Shown piece after piece: positions 14,401 to 62,260 of a DNA stretch of 64,000 bases; within the stretch, counting starts at the first letter, position 1; each line of letters starts with the position of its first letter. Source of the DNA: Psammoneis japonica (lineage: Eukaryota). The notes beneath the pieces are model-generated. The model did not search any database. It worked only from the letters and a program-made list of their open reading frames with translations, and was not told the DNA's origin. A program made the position numbers and the translations under genes. The stretch lies in assembly GCA_008632985.1 (NCBI GenBank), contig QPGO01000050.1:186001-250000 (forward strand), written 5' to 3'.

Positions 14401-14565
14401 GAATCAGTGGAGTCCAGTCCATGCTGGCAGTTGCCACCACAGGCACTGACTTTGACATTGGCGTTCCAGCTGCACCTCTGACAGGAGCTTTTGCAACCAA
14501 ATTGTCAATCATTCACACAGCTGAGTTGATGGACTTTCAGCTTCCACCAACACACACAACCCTCA

Positions 14566-15678
14566 GCTGTTCAATGCCAAGAAGGCGCACTTGGAGCAGG
14601 CACTGGCAGTGCTGTTTTGGAAGGTAAAATCTCTAGAGAATTGACAGCATGCACTTGGAGTTGATGCCAGAGTGTCTGTGTTATCCTGCTGTTGCATCAA
14701 ATTGGCATTTTTTTTGCAGTTGGGCCAAAAGAAGCAACTTGACAGAGCAAACTCTAGAGGAGGTTTTTGTGAACAAAAAATGTGCAGAAGCAGTGCCATG
14801 ATGTGTGGCCCAAAAAGAACAACACGTTGTTTCCTCGTGGACAACTGTCACTTGCTTGAGGAAGTGTGAAATAAAATGCATTTTAAAGTTGCAGCATGTG
14901 TGTTTTGTGCATGTCAAACAAACATTTTCAACCCTCATCTGTTCATCATGTTTATGATCGCTGTCCCAAGGGGACCATCTCCTGGTTGTTGGTGTGCCAC
15001 AGTCAAGTGGTGAGCACTGTTTTTGAGTGTGATGGGAGTGATGATTTTGCAATGGATTTGCAATCACTTCACTGTGGAATTTGGAAGTTTTTTCAGTGTG
15101 TTTGCAACTCAGAAGAGATGCAGAATCCCACCAGAGTGGAGGTGACTGAGCACCTGGATCCAGTGGAACAGAACCTGTGGCACACAATGCTGGGATGTCA
15201 TTCAGGATGGGTGCAATCCAGCAGATTTCTTGAGTGAGAATGAACTTTCAATGTTGGTGAATGACATGGACTGCTCATGGGAGGACACTGAAGTGCATCT
15301 CATGGCAGAGCTGGAACAGAATTGGGAGCTGTTCGATGCTGAGGCACACCTGAAGCAGGCACTGGCAGTGCTGTTTTGGAAGGTGAAATCCCTGGAGAAT
15401 TGACAGCGTGCACTTGGAATTGGTGCCAGAGCATGATCCATGTCATCCTGCCATTGCATCAAATTGGCATTTTACACCGCAGTTGGGCCAAAAGAAGCAA
15501 TTCAATGGAGTGAACTCCAGAGGAGATTTTTGTGAACAAAAAACATGCAGAAGCAGCGCCATGATGTGGGGCCCAAAATGAATGACACGGTGTTTCCTCA
15601 TGGACAATCATCGCTTGCCGGAGGAAGTGTGAAACTTCATGTGTTTTGTGCATGTCAAACAAACATTTTCAACCCTCA
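14566..15678. repeat. Direct repeat, 2 copies of ~350-370 bp (14566-14936 and 15328-15678)
   Basis: Both copies share gcaggcactggcagtgctgttttggaagg and catgtcaaacaaacattttcaaccctca. Confidence 0.9.
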
Positions 15679-21356: not shown

Positions 21357-22669
21357 ATGCCGATTTGTCGGATGTCCGACAAAATTTGTCGGCTACGACA
21401 AATTTTGTCGTATACGACAAATTTTGTCGGATGAATTTTCGTCGATGACATCGTTCGCCAAATTCTGTTAATTACCCCACTTATTGAAACGACATCGCCA
21501 AAGTTCAGGTTGGTTATAAATGACATTAATCATTTTATAACTTAATTTTAAACAATGTTTCTGTCCCATTTATCGCCAACCCGGACATTTTGTCGCAATT
21601 CGCGTCTTTTCGCGACAAATCATCAATTCATTTAAGAAAATGTCGCCAAATGCGACAAAATGCCGTGTGTCCCTGGGGCACTGCAGGGGCTGTTGTTGGG
21701 CATCAGCACCAGCGACCCAATGAGGTGGGAACGAACACACCACAACAGAACAAGCAAGTGTCCCACTTTACAAGGCTGTCCTGCACTTGAGCAAACTCAT
21801 GGATGGGTGCTGGCAGGGAGTGGTGCCAAATCAGCTCCTCATTTGTGCACATGTGATGCATGTGCACCATGTCTCCAGATGCTCTCAGCTTCATTTTGCC
21901 AGCCACTCTCTGCCATTGAAGCCAGAGCAGTGCCCAACCACAACTTGAGTGAGGTTGAACAACCAAGTGAGCAACAAGTCATTCAGCTGCACATGTTGTT
22001 GCATCTGACACTAAGTTGCCACCTCACCACCTTTCAGGGCTCAACACACTGCAAGACAATTCCAGACACAACTTGAGCACAAAGCAACAAACTGCCACAT
22101 GCTTTTGCTCTTCTTCCAAACAGGTCTTGGCAACGGGGTTGCACATTGCTTTCAAGGTTCAAGCAAGGAGTCAGTGAAACATGGTGAACACAGACTGCAC
22201 AATGTGAGGGACAGTGGAGACAACACAACAAACCTGCACAGCTTGAAGTCATTTCCAGAAAATCCCATGATGAGCAGCCAGAGCAACAATGTGTGGGTCA
22301 TGCATGGCAGAAGTGCAAAAAAGGCAGTCATTTTGCTGTTTGGACAAACAGCCTGCAAACAATTTGCAGCAACATGAAATGAGAGAAGATGAAATTAATC
22401 CCCCCAGTGGCACAGCCAAATGAATTTGTTCTGGCACTTGCAGAGAAGCACACAATGAGCACCCGGGCTTTGGGACAAACAAAGGGTGCCAGTTTCTATG
22501 AGGACAGCCAGCAGCAAAGATGAGGCATGGCAAGAGAGATCTTGCAGTCACCTGTGCATTGTGCTGCAATGGCTGAGAGGTTGTTCAAAAATGTTGAGGG
22601 CAAAGCAGCTGCTGATGATAAAGCCTGTCACTCAGCTGGGAAGCAAGTCACCACATGCAATGTGTTTTT

Positions 22670-25600
22670 GTGCTCAACAAGAAGATCAATGAGAACAAGA
22701 AATGAAATTTTTTACACCTGTGATGCATTCTCCACACAGCGGTGCCATGGTTTTTCAGAAATCAACTGATGCAGTCACTGCCACTTGAGCTCCGAACAAT
22801 GGCTTCCCACTGCCTCATTTTTGGTCCAAATCTGGCATTGCCAAAGTCATTGTTCAGGTTGACAGCTGTTTTTTCGATGGTCACAGATTTGCAACATTTT
22901 GTTTTGTGGTGCAACATGTTGTGTTTTTGCAAGAGCTTCAACTCAGTTGCCTGTTGCACGTCATTTTTTGTGTTTTGGCTGCACCTGCTGTCTCTTTTTG
23001 TTGAACAAACACCACACAACTCAGCTGCTGACATGCTGTTTGGCTGGTGCATGACAGTGGTGCACCCATCCTTGTCACACATCTGACAACAACAAATGAA
23101 AAAACTCTCCTGAAAAAAACTTTCCATCAAACCAAGCCCATTTTGACAGACAGCACAGTTGTGAGCTTGAATCCTTTCCTTCTGCCCAGCATCAATTTGA
23201 TCCTGTCATGACTCCTCATGCTTTCTGTTGCCACAAATGCTCATCAAATGATTTGACCTCATCATCACATCACAATTTGACAAATTCCAACATGCTCATC
23301 AACCCAGATTACAGCATGGTTCAATCTGAGCTTCATTCAGCACTGCTTTCAAGCAGTTGTTTAATGACAAACATGCTGCAAACACTTTTTGAGGTGCCAA
23401 GTCATTGGGGCTGACATGGTTGCAGCCCAGAGCTTTGTGTTTTTGTTTTTGCCCATGCCTGCACACTGCACTCCATTTTTGCTGTTGCAGCAGATTTTTG
23501 CTGGTGAGTGCCAAATTGCATCTCCACTGTCTGTGCAGCTCTTCCTCATTGCTCTGTGAATGCACCAGTTTTGCATCTTGCAGAAGGTTGCAGAGGGTCA
23601 TTTTTGGAAGCTTCACTTGTTGAAGTGCTGGCATCAATTTGCTTGCATCAGAGAGAAAGGCAAAAACATTCCCAGTGTGCCCAAGAACTCTGGGACCCAG
23701 GCTGTGCAAATGGCAGTTGCAGTTGAGGCTTCTTTGATCAGAGAAAACTTGCTTCACATTGGAGCTTTGTGCAAAGGTTGGTGCAGATGATCAAGCCACA
23801 TTGCAACAACTGCATTGCCAACAAGATTTGCCATGAAGATTTGCTTGACAACTTGCAGCAGGAAAACTTGACAAGGCTGTGCAAGCTTCCAAAAATGATG
23901 ACTGTGGCACACAATCAATGGAGGTGAGCTCATCTTCACATTTCTGACTCATGTCCCAACCAATCCTCCCACAAGATTCATTCTTGCCTGGGCATGGGAT
24001 CAGAGTGAAACAGAAGACGGCTCACTCTTTCATCACAGTTCTCCATTGTTTCCAACTTCCAACTCATCCTTTTTGCTTCGCAAGTGTCATGTGGTCCTCT
24101 TGAGCATCCAAAGAAAGCATTTGAGCTGTTGCTTGAGCACATGAGAGCACCAAAGGTGTGAAAATCATCCCAGCCACTCTGTTCCTTTTTCCAGACCTTG
24201 TCTGCATCTTTGGGCAGCTGATGAGCCACTGTGGCAAGAAGCAATGTCATGCACAAGGTGCAAAAATGACTTGCAAAACAAAGCATCAGCAAGCGCTGCC
24301 AGCAAGAAACTCACAGAAAACAACAAAGGAGCAAGTGGGTGGTGATTGCAGAGCAGCACCTGAGAATGTTGTGCTCTGATGTTGAGAAAGCCCTCACATG
24401 CTTTTGACAGCAAAAGCACTCAACAAATTCTTCTCAAAGAGCTTTTTCTTACAACCCAAAACCCACATCCTCTGGCAATTTTCTTTGCTTTGTGAAAATG
24501 GAAACAATGGCTTCTGGTTGCTGCTGCTTGCCATTTTCTCACTCTTCTTGCTGCTGCTGCTGCTGCTTGCCATTTTCTTCTTCTTCTTGCTGCTGCTGCT
24601 GCTGCCATGTGAAGGTGTTGTTTTGTGCATGTGCATGACAAGTTTGTCGCCAAAGGTGCTGCTGCATGCAACAAGCTTTTGATGAGCAGTCAGCATGGAA
24701 AAGCTGTTTGACAGTTCTGTGAAGCCAAGTGACAACTGCAGCACCATGAGAAGGATGCACCACAAGAAGATCAATGAGAACAAGAATTGATTTTTTTGCA
24801 CTTGTGATGCACTTTCCACACAGGTGTTGTGGTTTTGCACAATGTCAGCTGATGTGGTCACCCCACCATTTAAAAATTCTGAACAATCACATTGTCATGT
24901 TTTGCCACCGGCTCATTTTCAGTGGCAAACCTGGCATTGCCAAAGTCATCATTCAGGTTGACAGCCAATTTTCCCAATGACCACAGATTTGCAGCACTTT
25001 GTTTTGGGGTGCAGCATCTCATTTTTGGAAGAGCTTCAGCTCAGTTGCTGTTGCATGTTTTTTTGCTGTTCTGGCCGCACCTGTCTCTTTTTGTTGCACC
25101 AGACCACACCATGCACAGCTCAGCTGTCAATGCACTGTTTGGTGCATGACAATGGTGCACCCCCCATCCTTGTTGCACATGTGACAACAAGGAAAAGACT
25201 CACCCTCTGAAAGAAGCCCCTCATTGAACCAAGCCCCTTTTGACAAACAGCACAGTTGTGAGCTTGAATCCTTTTTCTGTCCAGCAGTGCCAGTTTGACC
25301 CTGTCATTGCATGCATTTCCTGCTGCCACAAATGCTTGTCAGCCAATTTGACTTCATCATCACACCACAATTTGACATCACCCCAGATTGCAGCATGGGA
25401 CAATCTGCACTTCATTCAGCACTGCTCTCAAGCTGTCCATTGGCATTTGGGAGCCTCCAAAAAGATGGCTGTGTCATGCCATCAACAGAGCTCAACTTCA
25501 CATTTTTGACTCATGTCCCAGCCAGTCCTCCCACAAGATCCACTCTTGCCTCTGCTTGAGATCAGAATGAAAATGGAGAACAGCTTGGTCAACTCATCCT

Positions 25601-27540
25601 TCTGCTTTGTGAGTGTCATGTGGTCCTCTTGAGCATCCAAGAAAAGCATTTGAGCTGCTGCTTGAGCCTGTTAGAACATCAAAGGCATGCCAAGAACATC
25701 ACCCCAGCCTCTCCACTTTTTCCCCTGTGTGCTGTGTCTGCACTTTTGGGCAACTCATGAGCCACACTGTGGCAAGAAGCAATGGCATCCACAAGGTGCA
25801 AAAATGACTTGCAAAGCAGAACATCAGCAAGCACCGCCCAGCAAGAAAGTCACAACAAACAACAGAGGAGCTTGTCAGTGATTGCAAAGCAGCACCCAAG
25901 AGTGTTGCACTCTGATGTTGAGAAAGCCCTCACATGCTTGGACAAAAGCACTCAACAAATGATTCTCAATGAGCTCTTTTCATGACCCAAAACCCATGTC
26001 CTCTGGCAATTTTTTGTGAAATGGAAGTGAGGGTTTCCTCTGGTTGCTGCTGCTGCTTGCCATTTTTCTTCCAGCTGCTGCTGCTGCTGCTGCCACCATG
26101 CAGAGGAGCTGTCTTGTGCCCACACATGCCAAAATTGTTCCTGAAGGTGCTGCTCTGGCTGCACAACAAGCTTTTGACAACAAGCCAGTGCCAAGAAGCC
26201 ATTTGACAGCTCAACAAAGCCAAGTGGCTGACAACTGCAGCACAATGAGAAGGATCCACCACAAAATCAACAAGAACAAGAAATGAAATTTTTGCACCTG
26301 CAATGCACTCTCCACACAGGTGTGATGGTTTCTCAAAAATCAACTGATGCGGTCACCACACTGTTTGAATTCTGAACTTTTTGATCACAGGTCTGACATT
26401 GCCAAAGTCATCACTCAGTTTGGCAGCTGCTTTTTCCAATGGCCGCAGATTTGCAACATTTTGTTTTGTGGTGCAGCCTCTTGTTTTTAGAAAAGCTTCA
26501 ACCCAGTTGCCCGCTGAATGTTTTTTTTTAAGTTTTGGCTGCTTCTGTCTCTTTTTCCTTTAGCTGCATCAGACACCACACAACTCAGATGGCTGATCCA
26601 CTGTTTGCATGACAATCATGTGCTTTCTCCTTGTCACACATCTGACAACAAGGAAAAACTCTCCTTCCAAAAGAAACTTCTCGTTGAACCAAGCCCCTTT
26701 TGACAGACAGCGCAGTTTTGACCTTGAATCCTTTCCTTCTGTCTGGCGCCAATTTGACCCTGTCATCATGTGCACTTCATGTTGCCACAAATGCTTGTCA
26801 ACTAATTTGACCTCATCATCACATTGCCGCTTGACAAATTCTGACATCGCCAGATTGCAGCGCAGGTCAATCTGCACTTCTTTCAGCACTGCTCTCAAGC
26901 TGTCAATTGGCACTTCCCATGTGGTCCTTTTGAGCGTCCAAGGAAAGCATTTGAGCTGCTGCTTGAGCCTGCAAGAACATCAAAGGTGTGCCAAAAATGT
27001 CATTCCAGCCACTTCACTCCTTTTCCCATGCCTCGTCTGCATCTTTGGGCAGCTGATGAGCCTCTGTGTCAAGAAGCAATGGCACCCACAAGGTGCAAAA
27101 ATGACTTGCAAAGCAAAGCATCAGCAAGGGCCACCAGCACAAATCTAAAAAAAGGAGCATGTGGATGATTGCAGAGCAGTGCACAAGGGCGCTGTGCTCT
27201 GATGTTGAGAAAGCCCTCTCATGCTTGCGCAAGAGCACTCAACAAATTCTTTTCAGCAAGCTTTTTGCATGACCCAAAACCCATGTCCTCGGGCAATTTT
27301 CCTTGCTTTGTGAAATGGAGACAAATGCTTCCAGTTGCTGCTGCTTGCTGTTTTCTTTTTGCTCTTGCTGCTTCTGCCACACAGAGGTGTTGTCTTGTGG
27401 CCACACATGCCAAGGTTGTTTCCAAAGGTGTGCTGCCACATGCAACAAGCTTTTGACAAGGGCGCAGCACAAAGAAGCCATTTGACAGCTCAACAAAGCC
27501 AAGTGACAACTGCGGCATTGAGAGAATGATCCACTGCAAA
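22670..27540. repeat. Degenerate tandem array, ~3 units of ~1.5 kb
   Basis: Landmarks recur: atcaatgagaacaagaa-like at ~22685/24770/26266; tgtggtcctcttgagcatccaa-like at ~24090/25619/26919; tctgatgttgagaaagccctc at ~24375/25911/27198. The first unit carries a ~570-bp insertion. Confidence 0.88.
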
Positions 27541-27645
27541 GGCAGTGCCGCTGCACAAGGTCTCCCATCTTTCATGATTTTGGTCGAAGTTGTTGGTGCA
27601 CTGCACTGCACAACATGTGTGCCAGCAGTCTTTCCACCGGATGTT

Positions 27646-27646
<1 letters not shown>

Positions 27647-27678
<32 letters not shown>

Positions 27679-27807
27679 NNNNNNNNNNNNNNNNNNNNNN
27701 NNNNNNNNNNNNNNNNNNNNNNNNNNNNNNNNNNNNNNNNNNNNNNNNNNNNNNNNNNNNNNNNNNNNNNNNNNNNNNNNNNNNNNNNNNNNNNNNNNNN
27801 NNNNNNN

Positions 27808-27839
<32 letters not shown>

Positions 27840-27846
27840 CACACAC
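27647..27846. repeat. (CA)n microsatellite spanning an assembly gap (N at 27679-27807)
   Basis: Pure CA runs on both sides of 129 Ns. Confidence 0.95.
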
Positions 27847-28204
27847 TCTCACTGAAATGGCTGCACAACATTTTGTCAACATGCTCCAATGTGGCAGAAA
27901 CAGACAACTTGACAGAGGTGCGCTGCTCTTCCCACACTCCTTCAAGACAATTCATGGACCTTGGGGTCCTTGTGCTGTTGAGTGGGAAGCTCAGCTCTGC
28001 TCATGTTGGGAGAAAGGTGATGCCGGGTCACAAAGCCACAACACCAACAAGGAGGCATGGGGTCACAACACCACCCCAAGATCAACCTTGCACAGTGTGC
28101 TTGGCCACAATTGTCAAAGTGTTGCCTGGAGCCCACTGGATGCCACCAGTGCCCTCAGCTTCTTGCCATCGTTGGGTTTGTTGGTGCTGTCATGCTGCTG
28201 GTGT

Positions 28205-28720
28205 CCACCCCAAGTCTCGGAGCCGCCGGCTCAGCTGCCCCAGGTCCCGCAGCAGCCGGCTCAGCTGCCCCAAGGTCTGCAGCAGCTGGCTCAGCCACCC
28301 CAAGTCCCGCGGCAGCCGGCGCAGCCACCCCAAGTCCAACAGCAGCTTGCCCCAGGTCGGCAGCCTCAGCCGCAGCCCCAGCAGGAGCCCCGGCAGCAGC
28401 AGCAGCAGCATTGTGGGCCAGTGCTGGCATTTCACAGCACCGCAAGCAACCATCGCAGTGCAAGGAGGCGCCACATTGATGTTGCGCCCGGCCAGCAGCA
28501 GCAGCAGCAGCAGGGGCAAGTTCCGGCACCACTGCAGCAGGTTCCTGGCCAACAGCAGCAGCAGGGGCAGGTTCCGTCACCTTCGCAGCAGGTTTCTTGC
28601 CAACAGCAGCAACAGGCACAGGCTCTGGCTCAACAGCAGCAACAGGGGCAGTTCCACCTGCTGCTGCCACAGCCACAGGAGCAGCTTCAGGTGCTGCTGC
28701 AAGCAGAGCTTCAGCGGGCT
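28205..28720 (+). repeat. 30-bp tandem repeat (28205-28347) followed by CAG-rich low-complexity sequence
   Basis: gccggctcagctgccccaggtcccgcagca-like unit about 5 times, then (CAG)n runs. Confidence 0.8.
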
Positions 28721-28984
28721 TCAGATGCTGTGGTGGGGTTTGCATCACAGTGCAACATCTCTGGCTGCAGATTGCTTTTGTCACTGTCTGTGCCATTTCC
28801 CTGTTTTCTGCAGTGGCAATGTTTGTTGCTGTGCAAATGTGCAGCACCATTGAAGACTGTTTTGACATTGTGACAAAGAACAATTGAAAGCTGTTTTGAC
28901 AATTGCGACAAATGCACAAGTGGCAGGGAAATGAAAAATCTGTTGCTTTAGAATGTTGTCCATTGTTCTAAAACACAGTGTCAC

Positions 28985-29940
28985 AGCATCTGTGAACATC
29001 AAACAATGGATTGCCATTTTCAAGCTCCAGCTCTGTGATCACAGCCACTGCTGTGAACACATTTTGGTGTCTTTTGACTCAATGACAAAAGACACGGTTC
29101 AAGCAACTCCACTGCTTGAACCTGTTGTTTGCAGCTTCATGGCAAGCTCAAACCCATCCATGAAGTTGGCCACCATCCTGTTCAGGAACACTGCAGAGAG
29201 GGTGGCCCCTGCACCCCAGATTGGCTGCAACCCTCTCACCATCATCAAGGCAGTGTGCAAGAGCACTTTTGAAAATGTTGATGTCTGGACACTGGCCACA
29301 TGGAAACTTTCCATAAATCCAGACAATGTCTCCTGTCACAATGTTCATGGCAACCTCTCATCTGACTCCAGGCTTCTTGAATTTGTGCAAAAACTGGCCT
29401 TTCCAAAAAGGCTTCCAACCACAAATGCAGAAGATGGTGCCATCAACCAACACCAAGCATGTGTTGCCCATGCCCCCTTGAAAATGATTTTCCCACACAA
29501 TCTGGAGCAAAGTAACTCAGTGATGAGAGCCAACAAAGTGAAAGAGCAACAAAATCCCGCATTTCTAATGTTGCTTGATGTGCACTCACCCCACAGCAAA
29601 TTGCAGATTGCAGATCACAGCAACAAATGTCCAACTCCACTTGCGAAATGTTTTTTTGTCAACTGCGTTGGTTGCACTGGCAAGTGAGCAAAAATCTGAC
29701 TCAGAGCACAGCAGAGCTTCAGCGACATCATCAGCACCCACGGAGGAGAGGTGAGCCGCTGATGCACCACGTTCCATCTTTGCAACTGGGTCCATCATTG
29801 TCCACAACAAGGCACAACAGATCTCAGGTCATGTCCCAAACATTGCCTGAAACCATGTCACATCTGATGCGTGTGCAAACACGGTTGAGCACCGCATCAG
29901 TGCCTTTCCCTCAGAAAGGAAAGTTGTTGCTGCTGTGTGC
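28985..29940 (-). mobile_element. Decayed DDE transposase (DDE_Tnp_4-like; Harbinger/ISL2EU-related)
   Basis: Translated remnants FQAMFG, DKKTFRKWSW, CLVLVDGT, HKFKKPGVR*EVAMNIVTGDIVWIYGKFPCG, GERVAANLGCRG (expected ADxGYRG) and NPLFDV; broken by stops and frameshifts. Family assigned by motif recognition only. Confidence 0.72.
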
Positions 29941-31832
29941 ATGACAAAGAGGCAGTGCGTTGTCAGCCAATGTCAACAACGCCACTGCTTCTGCCTCCTT
30001 GCTCTCTGTGACATTTGGAGAGAGCAGATTGCGGCATCATGGTTGTTGGGATCGTGGCACAGAAATGGTGGGTGCGGGTGAGCTGAGATGCTTCAGAAAG
30101 ATGCGGTGACATGCGACATTGTGTTGCTCAAAGGTGAGCTTCAAAGTGAGCTTCGAAGAAACTTCGAAGCATCTCTTTAATGCCGCCAGCTCTCTCTAGA
30201 GCAGCTGGCACCCAAAATCTAGTCTAGCCACCAGCTGGAGCCAGCCACCACTGGCAGCTGGAGCAGCCACCACTCTGCTCCTAGAGCAGAGAGCTGGTGC
30301 TGCAGCAGACAGCATGAACAGACACCGTCAATGTCAAACGTACAGTGCCGTGTGCCCAAGAACGTGCGTGCATGTCCAAAACACGTAGAAGTGCCGTGTG
30401 TGCGAACCCACAGGTGCGCATCGCATGGTTGGGGACACGGAAGCAATGCCGGATGCGATCAGTGCGGCAGCATGGCACTGCAGAAGAGAGGCGCAGGCGA
30501 AGAACAGAAGCAGTCCAATCATCATCCCTCACCACCATCACATCAAAACCCAATTGAAGAGACAGTTGCTGATGCGATTGCATTCACACTGGATTTGGCA
30601 CGACCATTGCAGCCAGTGCAATGTCTCGTCGCCCAGCTGCAGAGCCTCCCGATGATGCTGACGCGAACAATGGACGATCTGTGTGTCAACGAGCGTCGAC
30701 ACCTCCTCCAGGTCTAATTGCCACGGAAGATGCGCCCGGTGATCTTTTTCCCATTGGAAAACTGGCAGCAAGTCCACTTGAAGCTCGAGGTGAAGTCAGC
30801 AACGGCTCTCGGTTGATCTCAGGCTTAGAGACATTTGTTGCCGACTTGCACCGCACCCCCCGGTGGTTCATTGAACTCAGCGATGTCGATGACACAGAGG
30901 CAAGCCCTCGTTGTGGTGTCATGCTGGTGGTGACTCCAATCACAACAAACCCAGAGGACTGCACCCTCACCAACATGACAACGGACCAAGAGGGCCGTGT
31001 CCTTGTGGTGAACGTGACCGTCTGTCCACGCCGCATCAGTGGCAATGCTCCCCAATGGTTTGGAGATGAACTGGAGAGAACTTCTTCAGCAATCCCACAA
31101 GGCGACAGATGTCGGGACAGGACCGGCACCTTTCAACCTTCCAGAGTCAGCAAAGACTGCTGGCAGACTGCCTGGTCCAATCAAATTGGCAGGCACATCT
31201 CTGCTGATGCAAACATTTGTGCAACAATGGAAGATTTGACCAAGAGGCGTGGTTGGGTTCGCTCAGATGGCACTCGCATTTGATTGACAAATTTGAACAA
31301 CATGCGTCCCCACGATCGAAATGGCAGCAACCAATGGTTCATGTTGATGCAGCTCTGGACCAACACCAGAAACCTTGTGACAAATGTCTGACAGAAACCT
31401 GCAGCAGGACCAAACCATGGAACAGAGTTTGTTGGCCAGTCATTTCCGAGTCTTGGTTTCTGGCTAAATCCAGGTCTCTTCTTGCATGTGTCCCAAAGTT
31501 TGTGTCCCTCCACTCTGGCCAGCTAGTCACTCTAGAGCAGCCAGCTAGAGAGAGCAGCTAGCCCCTTCTCGTTGCGATGTGATTTCATGTAAAAAAGAGG
31601 AAAAAGCCCAAGTTTCTCGGAAAAGTGGTTGACAATGCAGCCGCACGAATAAAAGGCAGTTGTCGCGCGCAATTTCGCAGGCTGTGCGCGCGAAGTTCGA
31701 ATTGATTCTGGTGCCGTGTCCAGCATGATGGCGGGTTTTTGTTGTCTTCCACTGGGCGCAGTGTCAACAGTCTTTGTGGATGGTCAGTTGGTGTGCTGTC
31801 GGGTGGGTGGAGGTCGATTGAATCGGGGTCCT

Positions 31833-34400
31833 TCAATGTTTGTAAAGGGACAGACCTGCGCCATCTTCCCACTGGGGTCGCCTGGAGAGCTGATCTGAGA
31901 GGCAGGAACACAGGATCCCCTGAGGCAACGGTGGGTCACCCAAACTGTGGTGATGCTCATCCTTGCATTGACACAGCTGCATGCTTCAGAACATGGCTTT
32001 TGCCACTTGTCTGACAGTTTCGATGCCATCTTCTTGCGGAGCATCACCTTGGCTTCCTTGCTGAACAGCCCGTCGCATGACACAACGAAGGGCATGACAT
32101 GACGGTGTTGTTCAAGACAGGGCTTGAGGTGCTTACGCTGTTTTCATGTTCGTGGCTTGCCAGGACTTCTTCTGGTGTTTTGGACAGGTGTGACTTCACG
32201 TCTGTGTCAGGGATTCGAACATCCATCACCATGTCTGTCCTTCTGTCCCAAAATCTCATGCCGAGAAGGTCTCCACGATCGCCATCGTTGGACTTGTTGG
32301 AGTTGGTGTTTCCTGGGGAACCATTGGGGGTGCTTGAGCTTCCATTGTTGCAACCAGTGGGGTTGATTGGGGGTCCGTCGCGTGTGTGGGAAGGTTTGCA
32401 AGCCTTGCCCATCAGGTCACCCACCAGGTTGTCACGCACTTCATCATGTCGTGAGATGACTGGGCCGCCCTTCTTGCACTGAAGAGCATGATTCATGGTG
32501 AATTTGCATCCACATTCATCACAGTGCTCTGGGAGGTCTGGCGGAGCACCGCCATGCCACAAGAAGAGTGCATCACGGAGCTCTTGGCATGAGAGTTCTG
32601 TGCCGTTCAGTGTCGAAGGGTGTGCTGACAGCCACGCTCCAGTCTTGGTGCTGCGCTTGACAGCTCTGGCCTGAAGGTTGGGCAGGTTCCTGAGGATCCT
32701 TTTGAGGGTCTCTCCATGTGCTTTGACTTTTCCATCAGCTGCTTCCTGTTTCACTTCACGCATGGTGTCCTTGTGCACTGCGGAGGAGAGCTGGGAGCAG
32801 ATGCGGAGTGAGATGATCACGTGGGAGCACGTGAGAGCACTTGCTTCACAGTTGTGAGCTGTGGACTCAGTTGGACAAGGGATGGACAGTCACGAAAATT
32901 TGATTGGGAGGGTGGACAGGGCCAATCTCAGGTTGTCGTTGGCTGGGGTCTTGCCCATCAGCGCCGGCAGAAAATTGCACTGTGTCGCGTGTTCTGCGTC
33001 GGCGAACAATTCTCCGCAGTCCTTTGCCACATGTTGGGCACATTGCCACTGAGGTTGCAGAGACTTTTGCAGACTAGCACAGGCGGTCTGAGGGTGGCAA
33101 ATTACAATCTTGGCGAGTCCCTGGATGACCGAGGTCCATGACTTGGCTTTTTCGCCCAGCCAACGGTCGCGTGCGTCCGTCTCTCCGACGAAGCCTCTGA
33201 GGCAGCAGCTGCCAGACTTGACAGCAAAGCCCAGATCTCCAAAGTGTGCTCCAGCATTTTCCAGGTTGTGTTCTGGGACTGCCAGGATGTTCTTGGAGTT
33301 GTCGGCAAGGCAGCATCCGTGTGTTTGGGGCCTTTGGCTTGGAGAGTGAGGAAAAAATCCCGCAGGACGTTGAATTTCCCAGCTGCTGCGGAATTGTCGG
33401 CATGCCAAGGGGTGAATGCATCTTTAAAATGTTCATTCATTTCATAGACTGGTGGAAGAAGTCCCAGTCCATGTGCCACCACACCAAGAAGCAGATCACC
33501 CTGTGTGACACCTTCTTTGCTGAGCAAAATGAAGGCGGTTCCGAAGCTTCCGCGGATGATCAGGACACTCCAATGCTTGTGGCTGTTGAAGGTGAACCTT
33601 GCACCAGATGGCCAAAGGTGCCTCACATTGCACAGCATCAAGATCCAGTTCTCTTTGTTGAACCCATTGGAGGCATCGACAAAAAGAAATCGGCAGTCAT
33701 CTTCAAATTTGTGTTGCTCCCAGAGCATGCTCATCGTGTGAATGGCGCCCTTGATGCCTGCTTCCAGTCCAGCACACAGCTGGTCTGTCCCACAAGCTTC
33801 CTTGGCTTCTGCTCCAGCAACTGGATGAATGGCTTTGGCAGTGGCTTGTTGCCACACCTCCCCTGTGCCGACCAGATGTGCGCCCGGGTTTTTGTTTTGC
33901 ACGACAAGTCGTTTTGCCATGATTTGCGGCACACGGCCCACAGGGGGTGACTCGTTTGCTGGCCAGTTTGCAAAGTTGCACAATGCTTCTTTAAGCAACC
34001 CACTGGCTTTTCTGCAATGGAGAAGCCATTCTGATGCTGTGTCAGCATCAGATCTGCCAAGTCCTGTGCCCCCGGACAGTCTGCGCTTGACGGTCTTGAT
34101 GGTTCCATTGGTGACAAGTGCACCCTGAAGCTCAGGCAACTCACTGAACTTGTGAAAATGGTCTTCATCCGGGATCCTCTGGTTTGGATGTTTCTTCTGA
34201 AGAATCTCAAACACTGAGTCATTGGTTTTTTTGTTGATGTCATCTGGTGAGAGGATTCCACCTTTCTCGCATTCGGAGATGCACCCACAACCACTCCTCG
34301 CAGGTTCCCTTGGAGCACCGTTCTATTGAATGTCTTGGTGCACTGCTCAGACATCTCCTCCCTTTGAATGGTCTTCAGGTCAGTTTCTGTTGCACATGGA
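31833..34400 (-). mobile_element. Decayed non-LTR retrotransposon with RT, CCHC knuckle and restriction-like endonuclease (CRE-like clade), 5'-truncated
   Basis: RT motifs FVDASNGFN, SKEGVTQGD and WHADN (from WYADD); C-x2-C...HALQC and RHDEVRD; RLE motifs RGDLL...DVRIPDTD and PFVVSCDG; C-terminus PQWEDGAGLSLYKH*. Confidence 0.85.
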
Positions 34401-36690
34401 CATTTGTCAAAACCTCAAAAATGTTCCAACGGAGTTCAAAACTGACTTTTGCTGTGGCAATGCAGATTTTTGGACCTTCAAAGATTTGTCTTCTTTTTTT
34501 AACAAGAATTTTACTTTCACAATCAGATGAAGACAATTGATTCTGCACACAAGCACAAATGTTTTATTCTGCCACTTTGCTTGCTGTTGTCAGGTTGGTT
34601 GGCACTGCCATGTGTCCTTTTGCTCTGGAGTTTGGAAATTCAGCGGCCCAACTGCTCCTGTTGGGGACAAGGCAACACAAGCCACACCACAACATCAACC
34701 TTGCAATTCCCAGCCACAGTTCTCAAAGTGTTGCCTGGGGTTGCCAGAGACCAATGGCACCTTCACCAGCTTGCTGTTGCTGGTTTGTTGGGGCCATCAT
34801 GGTGTCCTTTTGAATTTGGAAAGTCACATCTGCTCCTGTCAGGAACAAGGTGACATGGGGTCACAAAACCAAATGATCAACCTTGCAATGCTCAAACATG
34901 GTTTGCACCATCATGGCAGGGTCCTTTCATTCTGGAGCCAGGAGTTTGAAGTGTGCTTCTGGCTGGGACAACATGATGGGGTGTTGCAACCGTGCAACAC
35001 TGGCATTGTGCTGAGCACAATTCACAAGTGTTGGTGCCTGGGGTCCACCAGAGACTGCACCAGAGTGACCTCAGCCTGCAGGTGCTTGTTGGGTTGGTTT
35101 GTGCAGGCGCGGGGCTGCTCACAGTCTGAAGTTGGAAAGCTCAACAAGTCTGCCCCAGCCTGCAGACAAGGAGATGACATGGGACCACAACAGAGCAAGG
35201 AGGAACATTGACAGCAGGAGGCACTGCAGCTGCAGTGCCTCCACATCTCTGGGGGCTGCTGGGCTGGCTCTGTGCAGGCACCACACATGCAGCACCACCT
35301 CTGTGCTGACCCAACCAACCTCTTGCTCAACGAGCTCCCTGTCCACAATGAACATCTGTGCAACCAGCTCCACAACCTCTTTTGACCTCCTGCCTGCAGA
35401 TTCAACTGCGACGAGAGTGCAGCAGCAACAAAGGTTGTTGCGCACATGTGAATCAGCTCTGCAAAGATCAGCTGGCACATCAGCAGCCCCACAGACACAA
35501 ACAAACAAACTGCATGTGCCAGCACAAACAATGTGCAAATTCTTCAAACACAGATGCACCAAATGTGATTGAAACAATGTTCAACATCCAGCTGGTGCAC
35601 AAATGAGAGCTCACCACCAGCAACAAAACACACACTGTCAGCAAAGACCCAGTCATGAAATGACAAATTTTCAAGTTGATTCAAATGACCCAAAGCATTT
35701 TGAAACTAGTGTGATGAAAGGCTTCAAGAAGATGACCACTTGCAAAATGATGATGCAAGCAATGATTGACAGGCTGGCTGGGTTCTTGGCTGGGTGTCAT
35801 GGGAGGGTGCTGGGGTGCTGATGTCACAAGAGAGAGCTTCTCCTCCCATGCTGGACAGAGCTTTGCCAGGCAACAAATCCTTGGCTGACCCCACCTTTGT
35901 CAATGCTGACACACCCGCCAATGAGGCCAGCTGTTTGCACTTCTGTCTCCAGCTGCTTTTCCTCCAGTGTCATCTCCAACACAAAGCCCAGCCATCCTGA
36001 CACCACCTCCTCCTGTGCTGAAGAATCCTTCCCCATTTCTTCATCAAGAAATGCCACATCCCAGTCCCCCTGACACCAAGATGGCAGCTGGTTTGTCAAC
36101 CCCACCTTGGTGGAATGATGTCCTGACTTGAACCTGGCCATGTGATCTCCACCAGGGTTGTTGAGGGTGGTGCGCCATCCAACTTCTTCCTGTTGCTGGA
36201 GCCAAGGATGACATTGTGATGAAATCAGAAGTGGGCAACACTCTTCATGGAACACTTCTTCTGTTGCAATGTGCCAAGGGCACATTGACAGTTGACAATG
36301 CTTGGAAGTTTTTTGTCCTCTTGAGGCCACCTTCATTGCCTCCATCTGAGTTGCTGGGTTGCACGGATGCCTCTGGGAAACCACTGTTGCAATGGAGAGA
36401 ATCCATCAGATCATCACTGTGACCCTGAAAAAGGGAAAGGAGTGGGGGTGTCACACACAAATCAACTGTGTGCCAGTGCCTCCCCACAACTGAAATCTCT
36501 GCAACATGGGACAAGGAAATGCATGCCCTGCATGATGCTGCTTGGCCGCAAAGTTGCCAATGGATGCTTGGCTCTTCTGCTGTTGGCTCATGGACATGCG
36601 TGCACAAGCACAATGCAAAATGACAGCAGTGGCAAGCAAAAGGAAATCATGACCACATCATTGAACTCAATCATCAAAAGTGGCAAGACG

Positions 36691-37277
36691 GTGACGGACA
36701 CGAGCAAATGATCTTGTTGGAACTGGTCTGCATGCCACATCATCATCACTGTCATGTGTTGGATGAGGGTCTCAGCAGTGCACACATGTCAAGCATTGGC
36801 AAACAAGGAGACACTGGATGTGTTCGATTTACATTTCTTTCGTTTCCTCATCCGCCGCCTTGGTATCTTCGACAATGAGTTTTCCCGATTCTGTGTTCCC
36901 TTTTCCTTCTAGCTGTTGGTTGTGCTCCTCTTGCACTACAAGGGCGGCATTTCTCACCAGTTCGTAACGGTTGGCTACACCCAGAGCAGCCGCCGAGGCT
37001 TGAGAATCACCAGGCACAACGTCAGTAGTCGATGCATGCCTCGATTGCAAGAAGAACCCTGGATCCAAACCAGCCGCGGCGGCACGAGCTTGGTGTGCAA
37101 TCAAAACATCTTTTGACGACAGTGCTCCATTTTCTTGTCCATTGGAAGATGCAACTCGCCGCAAAGCCGTCAGCAGTTGCTGTGAAAGGTGGACCGTTCG
37201 GAAGCTTCAAAACAAACCCGTTCCATGCGATTGAACTTACTCAGCACTTGAGCCATTGCTCGCCCGTCGGCTGTTGC
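36691..37277 (-). pseudogene. TAF11-like pseudogene, copy 1 (internal ~350-bp deletion, TpA-mutated)
   Basis: Aligns to 37328-37800 and then to 38156-38249. Confidence 0.7.
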
Positions 37278-37327
37278 TTCTTGTGGAACGATAATTAAGT
37301 TTCTTCTGAGTTGGTTCGAGCCGCCCC

Positions 37328-38252
37328 GTGACGGACACGAGCGAATGATCTTGTTAGAACTAGTCTACGTACCATATCATCACCATCATGTGTTGGATGT
37401 GGGTCTTAGCAGTACACAAATATCAAGCATTGGCAAACAAGGAGATAATAGATATGTTCGATTTATATTTCTTTCGTTTCCTCATCCGCCGCCTTGGTAT
37501 CTTCGACAATGAGTTTTCCCGATTCTGTGTTCCCTTTTCCTTCTAGCTGTTGGTTGTACTCCTGTTGCACTACAAGGGCGGCATTTCTCACCAGTTTGTA
37601 ACGGTTGACTACACCCAGAGCCGCCGCCGAGGCTTGAGAATTACCAGCCACAACGTTAGTAGTCGATGCATTGCCTCGATTGCAAGAAGAACCCTGGATC
37701 CAAACCAGCCGCGGCAAGAGCTTGGTGTGGAATCAAAATATCTTTTGACGGTAGTGCTCCATTTTCTTGTCCATTGGAAGATGCAACTCGACGCGGCGCC
37801 GTCACCAGTCACTGTGCATATGCTTTCGCCAGCGTGGACACAACATCAGTGATCTCTTCAGATTGACCAGGCGCAACCATATCTTCAAGGGAGCGCTTTG
37901 GTCGACCACCGTTTCGTCGTCAATTCTCACTATTAGATAATGAACTAGTGTCACTACTGTTGTGACCATTGCTGGCAGTCCCATCGCGGATATACGGACA
38001 TCGCTGTGGCAAAGCGTTGTTGGCATTCCGGGCTTCACCGCCAATTCCCAAGGTCGAGGAGCCCAGGAGCTGTCGAGTCTTTTCTCCACCAGCACAATCT
38101 CTTTCGTGTGATACAGCAAGACAGTGCGCAACAAAAGATGATATAGCATCACCGCGAAAGGTGGACGGTTTGAAAGCTTCAAAACGAACCCGTTCCATGC
38201 GATTAAACGTACTCAGCACCTGAGCCATTGCTTGCCCATCGGCTGTTGCCAT
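37328..38252 (-). pseudogene. TAF11-like (histone-fold TFIID subunit) pseudogene, copy 2
   Basis: VLSTFNRMERVRFEAFK.STF and EEITDVVSTLAKAYAQ*LVT resemble the TAF11 histone fold; in-frame TGA stops at ~37920 and ~37810, plus a later frameshift relative to copy 1. Confidence 0.6.
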
Positions 38253-39049: not shown

Positions 39050-42000
39050 TGTCACGAGAATGACAGAAGTGCTGTAGGAATGCGGTAACCCCACCGGAAT
39101 CTGAGGGTCGTTTCCACCATTTGAAGTTTTCTTGTCGAGTGCTCCTGTGGATTCATCCAAGAGCAGAACTGCTGGTTTCAACGACAGTGCAATTGCAAGT
39201 GTGAGGCATGTTGTGCTTCCTCCTCTCCCAGAGAGGTTGATCCAAGGCGAGTGGACAGAAGCTCCGCTGGAGGCAATGCTGGTCGGGAGAAAGAGTGCTG
39301 TCTTTCTCATCAGCTTTGTAACCTTGCACTTCATTGAAATGCTCTCTTGGAGTTCTGTCGAGCGTTGGTTGCCATTGTTTGCAGCCTCATCCGTGCTGTT
39401 CTTGGGCTGATTCGCTGCGATGCCGTCAAGAGTCAAGAAACTCAAAATCATGGTGCATGATTGGTTCAATGTCACACATGCCAACAAGATCAAGCAGGAG
39501 GAGGACAAGGGGTCAACAAAAAGATTGGCATTGTTGGAGATGATGAGAATGGAAACGCTGAGCTCAAAAATGACTCCTTCCTCAAGGTGAAAGAGGCTGA
39601 CGATGAAGGCACGCCCTTGATGCGTTCGAGCTCGGTTGCAACTCAAAGGGCTGGGAACAAGAGCTTGAGTCTCTTGGAAAGGATGTGGAGAGCGTCCAGC
39701 AAACTGTCACGCATGTGTGTCATTCTGGATGAAACAACTCAAGCTGCCGCAGCTGGGATGCTGCCGGTTTCTTCATGGGCGTTGCGGGTGTGTTTGTCCG
39801 GCATGCACTCTTTTGGGGAGAAGCCCAGCTTCAGACCCTCACAGACAAGGGCAGAACACCGCTTCCTGTGCTTGGGAAGAAAGGGAACCAACCACTGATC
39901 TGATTGCCTTTGGCCATTGTTTGATTGATTCTCAAGATGCGGCTGCAATTGAAGCAGGTGTCAGCATTGGCTGTGCAGCTTTCATTTCAGCTGCAAAAAT
40001 GATCGTTGTCGGCCACAGCTTGGACACTGGCACAGTTGGAGGGCACGTTTGGGGGCCACTCTTTGTCAGTGTGTGGCTGCTCACCTCTTTGTGGGTGCAG
40101 ACAGAATGTTGTTGCATTGGACCGGCATTGAGCAGTGCCAGCCGCCATTCAAAAGAGGGGCTCAGAATGGATGTTGTCTCATGTTTCTGGCTTTGGAGAA
40201 TTGAAGGAGTTTCATCCTTCTTTGTTTCATGGAGCATGCCAACAAGCTGAATCTGTGAAACACCCACCATCTCTTCTGAAAGCGGGTTGGCACAGTTGAC
40301 AAGAACTCAGTTGCGACATTGGAAATGGCTCTGGTTTGGCATTGAGCAACGACGACATTGAGCGGTCCTCCATTGGAACTGGAAATCGGCGTGGACACGA
40401 GTTTGCATGATGACCAAGATTCTTGACCCAAACACCATGTTTGGACACAAAAAAACTTGCACCAGAAAATACAAAGGAGAACCAGCAACACAGATGCGTG
40501 CCATTGCTGTGGCTTGGGATGTTGCCATGACCAGGACATTCCATTCAATGACACCAGATTCCTTGGAAATGCTCAAACTGGTTGCAGCTGGACCTTTGGA
40601 CTTTAGACAAATGTTGTGGCCAGTTTGAGAAAGTGACAAATGAGCTCAAGGTCCAGTGCAAGTGTGACAACAATGCAGTGCAAACAAGCAACTGGAGCAC
40701 TGGACGAAAAAGCAATTGTGCGAAAGATGAGTCACCCCTTTGTCATGGGTTCACTCAATTCGCACAAGGACAAGCAGTGCCTCCAGATGCTGGTCAATCT
40801 CATGCACGTGAATTTGACGGCATTCTTGAGGATTGGGTTGTTGTTCATGCCTTGGCAGCAATTGAGGGGCTGAGCTGCATGCATTGTCAAGTCATTGTTG
40901 ACTTGGGAAGGGAAAATGTGATGCTGGACAGTGGACAGTGATGCTCCAATGTTGATCTTGGTCAATCTGTGTGTTCACCTTGCCATGGCATCATGCATGT
41001 CTTGGTGATGCTGGGTTTCATTAAAGCTCATGGAGGATCGGATTCTGCACCAATGGATTGCAACCGACACGACGGCCAAGTCGCTCATGACAGCGTGTGC
41101 TGAGGCCTGTTGTCAACAGACATTCTCAGGAAGCGCCGTCAGAGGAAAAGTGGTGGAGGAATTGAGAGGGACATGTTGGGCTGTTGGAGTTGAGAGGGAG
41201 AGTCAGTGTTTGGCAGTTGGGTCAAGGAGAGCATTCCACACTTGCCTGTCACCTTGTCCAACTTTTGCCAAAATCTGTTCTTTCACAGCTGCCTGCATCC
41301 CATCCACTCTTGAGCTCAACAGGGGCACTTTTGCACATGAGCAGGCTCAACTCTTGTTTGCCTTGTCTTGTGCATCTGTCCAGTTTGATGCAAAGGTGTG
41401 TGCAATTCATCACAATGCACTTCATTCTCACAACACTTCATTGGTGACCAAATCTGACTCTTGTCTTTGTGCTTCCCGCACAAGCAGGGGAAACGTCTCT
41501 GTTACGACATGCATGGCCAGGTTGTTTGAGGGCCTTGAGTGATGGTCCTTGCTTGGATGCGCTGGACCGACTCTCGCGGTGATTCAGATGCATCAAAATG
41601 TCATCTTGGACGCCGTTGCCTCCATGCCAGAAGGATTCATCCAACTTTTGTGGAGACTCGACTTGTTCCCTCTTTCAGCTGCACCCAACCTTGAGTGTCT
41701 TTCACCCCGATGCCAAAGAGGAGAATTTCATGCATTGCAGCCCCAAGCCAAGGACAGCTGTTGCCAAAAGACTTGGCAGCAGCAGGGCCTGTGGTGTTGG
41801 GCTTTTTGAAGTGCCACAGACAAGCCGCATTTGCTCACCTTGGAGAAGAGCACCATGCTCGTTGTCTAGATTGCACCTGCAAGAATGGTCACTTGCATCC
41901 TGTCGAAGCCTCAGAAAAGTTTCAAATCAAGTTGCTCGAAGCACGGGGCGCAGTTGGCAACACGGTGATTCGCCAAGCCTGCCTTGCATCATCATGCTGA

Positions 42001-42700
42001 ACATCACCAGGCTGCGGACGTGGTCCTTCAAAAGGCTCGCACTGTCGCCAACAATTCTCAGTTTGCGCCCGGCATGAAGCTGGGCTTCATTTGCACACAC
42101 AGCAGTTGGATCATGGATGCGGGGCATGAAGTCCTCTTAACTCGGCAGCTCGATCATCATCAAAAGTAGAGCGGAGTTGCAATGGGGGAAAAGAAGCAGC
42201 TTGGGACGACAAGAAATCAAGCTGCGATGCGGTGAATGTCGTCAAAGCTTCCCAAGCTGCCGGCACTGTTAGAGCGGCAATCGGGGCTGTGTCTTCAAGT
42301 TTCAATCCATCCCACAAAACCCGGAAAAGGGCAACATTGACGAGACGTTGCATGTCCTCTACCCAGTTTGACTCATCTCACGATTGTGCACTTCATCGAC
42401 ATTGATTCCAAAACCACAGACAATTCTGTTGGGGAGCTCATTGATGATTGGAAGGAGGTGTCGGTCCCGGGGAATGCCGTTGCTGTGAGTCTGCTCGCGG
42501 GTTCCTTAATTTGAAAAAGGACAAGATTGACTTTGCAGGCAGAAAACCACCGGCATCTACCGGCATTGAGAAGCTTCCATTTGGTTAGAGCTCACAGCAT
42601 TTCTTCGTTGTCGATGCAGGAAACGGAAACATTGATTTGTACAACATGAACCGTTGATGCTTCATAAAATGCAAAGATGGTCCATTGTCCATTGTTGAGC
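39050..42700. other. TpA-depleted block 3 with CpG largely retained
   Basis: Roughly 15-20 TA in 3.6 kb while CG remains frequent. Confidence 0.8.
39120..39250 (-). pseudogene. ABC ATPase gene fragment
   Basis: W.NLSG (degenerate signature), LAIALSLKPAVLLLDESTGALD (Walker B and D-loop); no Walker A found. Confidence 0.6.
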
Positions 42701-44564: not shown

Positions 44565-44617
44565 GCATTTGACTGCAGTGCTCGCATAGTTGTCTCGCGT
44601 TGAGCAACGAACAAACC

Positions 44618-44633
44618 GGATTTTATAAAATCC
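44618..44633 (+). promoter_or_regulatory. Histone 3' stem-loop (H2A)
   Basis: AACC-GGATTT-TATA-AAATCC-ACCC-TATTCACAAAGGA. Confidence 0.85.
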
Positions 44634-55112: not shown

Positions 55113-55565
<453 letters not shown>

Positions 55566-55756: not shown

Positions 55757-56218
<462 letters not shown>

Positions 56219-62100: not shown

Positions 62101-62260
62101 CGCTTCTGCCATCCAGTCGTTGGCACAAGGATGTGAAGGATCCAAACGCATGGCCTCCGTTCACCGCATTTTGTGTTCACTTTCGTGTCCGATTGATTCT
62201 GACGGGCAAGAAAAATCCAAAGGGAACTGCCAAAGATGCATGCATGCCAGTTCACACCGG
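59120..62260. other. TpA- and CpG-depleted hypermutated block 5
   Basis: TA nearly absent between ~59112 and ~62260; Tyr-free ORF track. Confidence 0.85.

Follow-up and report, generated by a model that had tools for sequence, protein, structure and literature searches.

A decayed reverse transcriptase motif in Psammoneis japonica as a probable read-out of local TA and CG transitions in a dead R2-like retroelement

The genome of the diatom Psammoneis japonica contains a reverse transcriptase (RT) pseudogene in a stretch of 64,000 nucleotides (contig QPGO01000050.1 of assembly GCA_008632985.1, positions 186,001 to 250,000 of the forward strand; hereafter the window, whose first letter is position 1). 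The pseudogene occupies 31787-34322 of the minus strand and carries, at 33393..33407, the motif W-H-A-D-N where the consensus of its protein family is W-Y-A-D-D. It is very probable, in our opinion, that this motif is what decay has left of the YADD box in a dead R2-like element, a 5'-truncated copy of a multi-copy family, which was eroded by local transitions at TA and CG. Two processes would have acted on it. One would turn TA into CA or TG and would have removed ~95% of the TA steps; all conserved Tyr codons and almost all TAA and TAG would have disappeared with these. The other would turn CG into TG or CA; about half of the CG steps in the element would have gone this way, with Arg becoming His, Gln, Cys or Trp and a catalytic Asp becoming Asn. 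Both would end in CA/TG and would be confined to sharply bounded blocks of repeat- or transposon-derived DNA, here called scrubbed blocks, sparing genes and the non-coding DNA that adjoins them.

From 33407 to 33393 the minus strand reads TGG CAT GCC GAC AAT, within a 406-codon open frame (33102-34322, minus strand) whose translation around the motif is FTPWHADNSAAAGKF; a second excerpt of the same frame around the motif reads KDAFTPWHADNSAAAGKF. For comparison, 150 relatives and the four pieces of the window copy were placed on a hidden Markov model (HMM) of the family with 1003 states, built from 36 relatives of at least 800 residues. The motif occupies columns 496-500, where the relatives have W in 93/102, Y in 73/102 (F in 20), A in 98/102, D in 97/102 and D in 96/102; the family box is [YF]ADD and that of the window copy HADN. 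CAT is a single T>C step from TAT, at TA, and AAT is a single G>A step from GAT that, with the C of GAC in front of it, makes a CG>CA change. The first-pass annotation of this DNA had described the motif, at this position and in these letters, as an ancestral WYADD hit once at TA and once at CG, and the relatives support both steps. It had also listed VAHGLG, FNSHKHW, KSHL and KPCSE as places where His or Cys probably stands for a former Tyr. All four are present on the same strand, and all lie on Tyr-majority columns, by which we mean columns of at least 25 rows in which 50% or more of the relatives have Tyr: VAHGLG on column 474 (Y in 108/116 relatives, CAT in the window), FNSHKHW on column 439 (121/127, CAC), KSHL on column 889 (20/33, CAC) and KPCSE on column 954 (24/32, TGT).

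There are 11 Tyr-majority columns, and the window copy has kept Tyr in none of them (0/11): six are now His, four Cys and one Phe. The other conserved columns are kept in 217 of 330 cases (66%), a difference that is highly significant (Fisher p=1.1e-5) and that holds at thresholds of 60, 70 and 80%. The loss of Tyr is, hence, well above the background divergence of the copy, with 10 of the 11 columns going to His or Cys. Placed by codon alignment to the family columns, these ten codons span 31991..33581 of the minus strand. Tyr>His changes are found at 33579-81 (CAC), 33471-73 (CAT), 33402-04 (CAT, in the motif itself), 32554-56 (CAT), 32188-90 (CAC) and 32129-31 (CAC), and Tyr>Cys changes at 33202-04 (TGC), 33079-81 (TGT), 33040-42 (TGT) and 31991-93 (TGT). 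As a null, we took the homologues in which 6 or more of the 11 columns are covered (n=63): they retain 38-100% of the Tyr residues in question (median 71%), and His or Cys accounts for at most 30%. In intact relatives, His and Cys are not the native residues of these columns. The same depletion is visible in overall composition: the 790 aligned residues of the element include 1 Tyr, 37 His and 34 Cys, against family frequencies of 2.3%, 2.9% and 2.5%, respectively.

Arginine is also lost in excess, being kept in 14/34 columns vs 203/296 for the remainder (p=0.0017); at the 60% threshold 10 of its 14 replacements are His, Gln, Trp or Cys. Altogether 124 conserved columns have changed, 97 by a single-nucleotide step and 27 by several steps. 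The 97 single-step changes comprise 12 of TA>CA, 7 of TA>TG, 18 of CG>CA and 9 of CG>TG, the rest being 18 other transitions, 27 transversions and 6 ambiguous cases. Among the T>C changes deduced at the threshold of at least 60%, 12 of 13 fall on TA. The TA class extends beyond Tyr, to CTA>CCA (Leu>Pro, three times), ATA>ACA (Ile>Thr, twice) and GTA>GCA. Within the element 7 TA are observed where composition predicts 135, and 89 CG where it predicts 180; on a log scale TA loss would thus be ~3-4 times further along than CG loss.

The direction of these changes was taken from the protein family, whose homologues set the ancestral codon states, an outgroup role that had been envisaged for the conserved protein from the start. 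The reverse direction would be that RIP-like (repeat-induced point mutation) C>T changes at CpA/TpG made TA in the DNA that we regard as normal, or that His and Cys are native to this lineage. A comparison of paralogues alone indeed gives no direction, and a few homologues carry His or Cys at single Tyr columns. However, Tyr is nearly universal among the relatives in columns 439 and 474, the DNA of normal composition holds intact conserved genes such as histones, and it is the element that is broken by frameshifts and a stop. Related loci from metagenomes speak against it as well. A scan of metagenome contigs yielded 79 related loci with DNA, of which 77 have a rho of TA of 0.29-0.80 over the match. 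Only two, L074 (326-2139) and L030 (479-2130), have a rho TA of at most 0.10 (0.08-0.10), combined with a rho CG of 0.5-0.6, a CA/TG of ~1.5 and a coding region in three frame pieces each. Both come from one metagenome data set, on contigs too short for flanks or host. They are not close copies of the window element, to which they have a single 67-bp blastn match, and are 66% identical to each other. Conserved Tyr is kept in 0/10 columns of L074 and 0/8 of L030, Arg in 10/21 and 12/18, and other residues in 70-74%. In comparison, the 76 TA-normal loci with enough coverage (rho TA of at least 0.25) keep a median of ~73-74% of Tyr, 76% of Arg and 73% of other residues. Every conserved Tyr is lost in all three TA-poor elements and in none of the 76 TA-normal ones. 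It is exceedingly improbable that the changes ran the other way or that His and Cys are native here.

The element itself is preserved as four pieces in three frames. Piece 1 (33105..34322, minus strand; HMM 199-524, E=9.3e-105) contains the N-terminal extension and the RT fingers and palm, with the WHADN motif; piece 2 (32893..33423, minus; HMM 529-664, E=1.1e-29), in another frame, contains the RT thumb and linker. An in-frame TGA at 32890..32892 (minus), within the conserved LP.K.[SA]GL motif of the family, separates it from piece 3 (32047..32889, minus; HMM 667-907, E=6.4e-58), which comprises the linker, a CCHC zinc knuckle and the first part of a restriction-like endonuclease. The C-terminus of the endonuclease follows in the third frame as piece 4 (31787..32143, minus; HMM 905-995, E=2.9e-24). 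Frameshifts lie at ~33303-33321, between pieces 1 and 2, and at ~32134-32143, between pieces 3 and 4, and HMM positions 1-198 are absent, i.e., the element is 5'-truncated. In YXDD polymerases the position of the second Asp binds metal and is needed for catalysis. Since this Asp is lost, and given the two frameshifts, the in-frame TGA and the 5' truncation, the element is catalytically dead, as had been proposed from the motif.

An exhaustive phmmer search returned 3206 relatives at E<=1e-3, 99 of them at E<=1e-30, the best being 46% identical; in a search of 90% clusters no relative above 52% identity was found. Relatives of intact length have ~1000-1200 residues, and two RT relatives are labelled Thalassiosira sp. 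No name for this RT family was found in the accessible part of PMC5029228. Five window pieces of the element gave no match in Pfam, a tblastn comparison with a phage collection gave none either, and a single-sequence search of the PDB returned chance matches only. Among ten homologues tested, eight contain RVT_1 at E<=0.01, two of which pass the Pfam cut-off. With a profile of 20 full-length relatives the best PDB matches were R2 proteins (2.5e-15 to 8.1e-15), followed by LINE-1 ORF2p. A C-x2-C-x7-H-x3-C zinc knuckle is invariant in 22/22 aligned rows. For the C-terminal 285 residues of an intact relative (locus L002, translated unchanged) a structure was predicted with a pLDDT of 86.8; all seven Foldseek matches of this model at E<=1e-3 are R2 proteins (TM 0.42-0.57), with weak cap-snatching and MGME1-type nucleases below them in the same list. 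The family is R2-like, judging from its RT sequence and from the predicted fold of its C-terminal zinc-knuckle and endonuclease part. It shares with the R2-type non-LTR (long terminal repeat) retrotransposons the RT profile, this C-terminal fold and a 3' copy bias typical of 5' truncation, but the identity in the fold matches is only 14-17% and the present family has its own N-terminal region of ~200 residues.

Copy number was approached through the summed depth of the contigs of one public run, which provides a rough estimate only: depth is 380-401 over the 5' part of the element and 1012-2131 over the 3' part, with ~60 for single-copy DNA. Near 31751, at the 3' end of the repeat, contigs have loose ends and depth drops from 697 to 62. 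Depth is thus distributed as in a multi-copy non-LTR element prone to 5' truncation. No target sequence was recognized in its flanks. Immediately 5' of the truncated element, at 34579-35553, the contigs of the run show many alternative joints and junctions that go back on themselves, at a depth of up to 745, which suggests a variable minisatellite-like repeat.

The erosion of the element is part of a larger pattern. Over the whole window rho is 0.27 for TA, 0.54 for CG and 1.54 for CA/TG, but this average masks two states. Eight scrubbed blocks, delimited by dinucleotide density, make up 37,543 of the 64,000 bp (59%) and contain 1.4-3.0 TA and 8-48 CG per kb, whereas the DNA outside contains 35-47 TA and 56-89 CG per kb, except for three intermediate patches of 300 bp. 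Pooled rho values in the blocks vs outside are 0.04 vs 0.60 for TA, 0.22 vs 1.02 for CG and 1.83 vs 1.12 for CA/TG, and the boundaries are sharp at a resolution of 250 bp. The element lies in the block 31710..36786 (TA 2.4/kb, CG 21.5/kb), in which TA is nearly gone and CG only halved, whereas both are lost in the other blocks. The two losses are independent of each other. The other blocks are 6047-14604 and 14906-20557 (together spanning 6047..20557; TA 2.7/kb, CG ~8/kb), 21700-30074 and 30376-31395 (spanning 21700..31395, with tandem repeats inside), 39110..42435, of intermediate CG (TA 3.0/kb, CG 28/kb), 51757..54337 (TA 1.5/kb, CG 8.5/kb) and 59201..62154 (TA 1.4/kb, CG 9.8/kb). Because the TA>CA/TG and CG>CA/TG losses cancel in their effect on base composition, G+C is equal in scrubbed and normal DNA (0.489 vs 0.484). 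The element, with TA gone and half of the CG left, appears as a bump of 0.53 GC at 28-34 kb.

Such a composition could in principle arise without any targeting, through a genome-wide neutral bias against TA and CG with selection keeping these steps in genes only. The low window-wide values would agree with this, and all recognizable genes do lie in the normal domains. Yet the non-coding parts of these domains, over 8.6-11 kb, have a rho of 0.68-0.72 for TA and 0.98 for CG, and since non-coding DNA there keeps both steps, the depletion is not a genome-wide neutral bias of this kind. The sharpness of the boundaries, the normal composition of a non-coding inverted-repeat element inside a scrubbed block and a non-coding duplicate of which one copy was hit and the other spared argue in the same direction, and we regard untargeted bias as very unlikely.

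The TA process can be followed in this duplicate. One copy of a tandem duplication, at 36691..37184 (plus strand), lies on the edge of a scrubbed block and has 7 TA and 24 CG; its sister at 37328..37816 (plus), in normal DNA, has 24 TA and 26 CG. The copies differ by 38 substitutions, 17 of which involve TA, with the TA in the sister copy in every case and CA (8) or TG (9) in the edge copy. The change acts on DNA in place and without a matching loss of CG. Direction is impossible to obtain from the pair alone and was therefore taken from the protein outgroup described above. Older repeat pairs within the blocks carry a related trace, in that CA<->TG exceeds every other kind of adjacent double mismatch by far. 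If the copies of a repeat resolve the same TA or CG independently, some to CA and some to TG, an excess of CA<->TG is predicted among their adjacent double mismatches. In the eight block repeat pairs that have any such doubles CA<->TG makes up 25-64% (e.g., 32/73, 19/49 and 9/14), with 72 types being possible. At 22671-27540, in a scrubbed block, there are about three tandem units of ~1.3-1.5 kb that are 73-77% identical; transitions outnumber transversions by ~2:1 between them and CA<->TG doubles are the commonest adjacent difference.

Fungal RIP resembles the present case: it, too, is a local hypermutation by transitions that is associated with transposons, ruins their coding capacity and alters the dinucleotide ratios. 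However, RIP is C>T mostly at CpA and makes TpA, whereas here TpA is destroyed and CpA/TpG are made, and RIP hits both copies of a duplicate, whereas here one tandem copy is spared and an unscrubbed multi-copy repeat adjoins the blocks. The destruction of TpA and the effect on one copy of the duplicate only rule out fungal RIP as the process. The decay of methylated CpG, as in vertebrates, plants and diatoms, would likewise give CG>TG/CA in repeats, replace Arg by His, Gln, Cys or Trp, and change Asp into Asn after C, but alone it cannot touch Tyr codons. Cytosine methylation in diatoms falls on transposons, and the CG process is most likely the usual decay that methylated CpG undergoes in silenced transposons. 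Of the two processes it is the slower one here, and the methylation of this DNA is putative. The accessible part of a mutation-accumulation study of Phaeodactylum describes a GC>AT bias with CG as the most mutable step, reports no TpA effect, and mentions cytosine methylation in a diatom (PMC6604790).

A further possibility is ADAR-like hyper-editing (A>I) of the RNA of the element ahead of reverse transcription, in which case the copy carried its mutations from the start. In favour of this, the element is a retrocopy, and ADARs favour U before the edited A (bioRxiv 10.64898/2026.01.13.699255, accessible part). The sense strand, however, shows both T>C (12) and A>G (7), which speaks against a single RNA strand having been edited prior to integration. 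Moreover, the same signature extends over ~35 kb of neighbouring DNA without RT homology and grades into the tandem duplicate in place. An origin in edited RNA is, consequently, highly improbable.

The TA steps that survive in the blocks (n=92) say something about the context in which TA is lost. With R and Y for purine and pyrimidine, 2 of them are R-TA-Y, 34 have mixed flanks and 56 are Y-TA-R. For CA/TG in these blocks the corresponding shares, in the same order, are 24.5%, 52% and 23.5% (chi-square p=1.8e-17), and in normal DNA 33%, 49% and 18%. TTAA (23) and CTAA/TTAG (25) are frequent among the survivors, and ATAT and GTAC are absent (0 and 0, vs 66 and 96 in normal DNA). This suggests that the TA process prefers R-TA-Y flanks; the flanks of the survivors also fit a one-strand motif T-A-Y, which covers the Tyr codons. 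The blocks contain 227 CA+TG per kb vs 2.45 TA per kb and, assuming near-equilibrium, TA loss would be ~100 times faster than the re-creation of TA.

The only precedent for hypermutation of TA to CA or TG that we found in the literature is a preprint on Bigelowiella natans (Mettrop et al.), from the accessible part of which the following is taken. In mutation-accumulation lines of this alga the mutation rate of two integrated viral regions exceeds that of the remaining genome ~1000-fold; of the 231 mutations in these inserts 230 are A>G or T>C, and all fall on TpA (bioRxiv 10.64898/2026.01.13.699255). The hypermutation is active only in some lines, and its long-term trace is a depletion of TpA with a gain of CpA+TpG in 124 clusters in ~95 Mb. 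Domains of the RT, endonuclease-RT and DDE types are over-represented in coding sequences that are poor in TpA, and the authors propose an ADAT2-like DNA adenine deaminase; neither CpG nor diatoms are mentioned in this part of the text (bioRxiv 10.64898/2026.01.13.699255). Both cases share A:T>G:C changes at TpA that lead to CpA or TpG, their confinement to local blocks, the loss of TpA with a gain of CpA+TpG, and the association with RT domains. They differ in host, which is a chlorarachniophyte there and a diatom here, and in target, which is a virus there and, as far as identifiable, a retroelement here. Depletion is also stronger in P. japonica, with a rho TA of 0.04 over 59% of 64 kb compared to 0.45 in the insert of a nucleocytoplasmic large DNA virus (NCLDV) in B. 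natans. Furthermore, CpG is co-depleted here and the survivors are biased against R-TA-Y, and the process is known here from a fossil signature and there from de novo mutations. By analogy, the TA process in P. japonica may well be the same kind of locally targeted TpA hypermutation as in B. natans, and its targets would be silenced mobile DNA.

As to the chemistry, our preference is for an enzyme that deaminates A within T-A(-Y) in silenced DNA, the resulting inosine being read as G; we consider this plausible, although we would stop short of calling it probable. The substrate context of such a deaminase would resemble the U33-A34 of ADAT/TadA-type enzymes: ADAT-type enzymes always meet U33 before A34, and bacterial TadA meets U-A-C. 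The biological effect would be an irreversible inactivation of mobile DNA. Because TA is self-complementary, however, A and T as the base hit look the same in the sequence and the T>C and A>G outcomes are inseparable, which weighs against deamination of adenine in particular and leaves room for the same local TpA process acting on thymine. In that case TET/JBP-type oxidation to 5-hydroxymethyl- or 5-formyl-uracil, followed by mispairing or misrepair, would give T>C. Formyluracil is mutagenic towards T>C, and hydroxymethyluracil occurs preferentially at TpA in dinoflagellates. The near balance of outcomes (6 His vs 4 Cys in the Tyr columns, 8 CA vs 9 TG in the duplicate) would be expected from the thymine route too, and the co-occurring loss of CpG would suit a block marked by base modification. 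On the other hand, our analysis gave no sign of such modifications in diatoms, CG and TA loss are uncoupled in the duplicate and across blocks, and the sole experimental precedent proposes an adenine deaminase. Modification of thymine, the main alternative chemistry, seems an unlikely source of the changes compared to deamination of adenine.

Several observations weigh against the picture of two local processes acting on silenced mobile DNA. With F in 20/102 relatives in the motif column, a Tyr ancestor at that single codon is likely but not certain, and the ancestral codons as a whole are estimated from relatives that are just 46-52% identical. An island of 1.1 kb at 20558-21699, in scrubbed DNA, has remained unscrubbed, with 47 TA and 89 CG per kb. 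It is bounded by inverted repeats of ~130 bp (20600-20728 and 21548-21676, 78% identity) with low-complexity repeats inside, and resembles an inserted DNA transposon or foldback element, which would either have arrived after the scrubbing or be exempt from it. Likewise, the multi-copy repeat at 36787-39109, at 3-9 times single-copy depth, has normal TA and CG and adjoins scrubbed DNA. A second run covers only ~36.7-43.3 kb of the window, and its depth peaks at this repeat. Because these two repeats stay unscrubbed, repetition or position alone does not decide the targeting; both may be younger than the last episode or exempt. The preference for R-TA-Y is not evident in the small duplicate pair, in which 8/9, 5/10 and 4/5 sites were converted (flank classes in the order given above). 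A transposon origin is assumed for the blocks other than that of the element: many block sequences are repeats, and the retroelement is the sole identifiable sequence in them. Finally, the evidence is a fossil signature, from which the rate of the process, its episodic activity and any purpose in defence would have to be deduced.

All recognizable genes of the window sit in normal DNA, i.e., those for H2B, H2A, H1-like, H4 and H3 histones, a methylmalonyl-CoA mutase-like open reading frame (ORF) and an NDH2-type dehydrogenase. The canonical histone genes lie between scrubbed blocks, with a divergent H2B/H2A pair followed by the H1-like ORF at 43295-46057 and a divergent H4/H3 pair at 55116-56215, in DNA of normal composition. 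The best named matches of the NDH2-like gene are all diatoms, with 66-71% identity (Nitzschia, Seminavis, Cylindrotheca, Fistulifera, Epithemia, Pseudo-nitzschia, Fragilariopsis and Synedra). The motifs AVSAF and ATDAF in two presequences encoded in the window resemble the plastid-targeting motif of diatoms.

These results have practical consequences for the study of such genomes. Scans of GC content miss the scrubbed blocks because their G+C is normal. As the blocks are nearly devoid of TAA and TAG, they contain long spurious ORFs, with open frames of up to 431 codons in all six frames (e.g., 27578-28870 on the plus strand and 28158-28967 on the minus strand), and these are likely to be miscalled as genes. 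None of the 132 ORFs of at least 100 codons from the scrubbed blocks has a credible Pfam match; weak matches (E6, CoV_NSP2_N, TLD and RcsC) were below the cut-offs and were rejected as chance. The loss of Tyr also lowers the homology scores of proteins encoded in the blocks, as exemplified by the lack of a Pfam match for the RT pieces of the window. The use of a conserved protein as outgroup for the direction of mutation worked here and can be reused genome-wide.

The decayed motif is by itself an ordinary detail of a pseudogene, yet it cleanly records a mutational process that is unusual and has hardly been described. If our reading holds, TpA-specific local hypermutation is not limited to one chlorarachniophyte, and over half of the diatom DNA studied here has been shaped by it, diatoms being among the most important primary producers. 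It would represent a natural A:T>G:C editing of DNA, opposite to the usual GC>AT mutation bias, and would thus be relevant to mutation theory and to the question of how algae control their transposons; natural DNA adenine editors might also be obtained from it. We tentatively suggest, as a conjecture in need of some caution, that diatoms possess an active DNA-level genome defence in which TpA (with a preference for T-A-Y on one strand) is turned into TpG/CpA across silenced transposons, faster than methylated CpG decays, so that mobile DNA loses all its Tyr codons and all TAA/TAG stops. The enzyme would be a DNA adenine deaminase of the ADAT/TadA kind, whose liking for T-A would reflect U33-A34 in its tRNA substrate. 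If this were true, TpA editing would, together with the chlorarachniophyte case, represent a branch of eukaryotic immunity that either is old or has evolved repeatedly.

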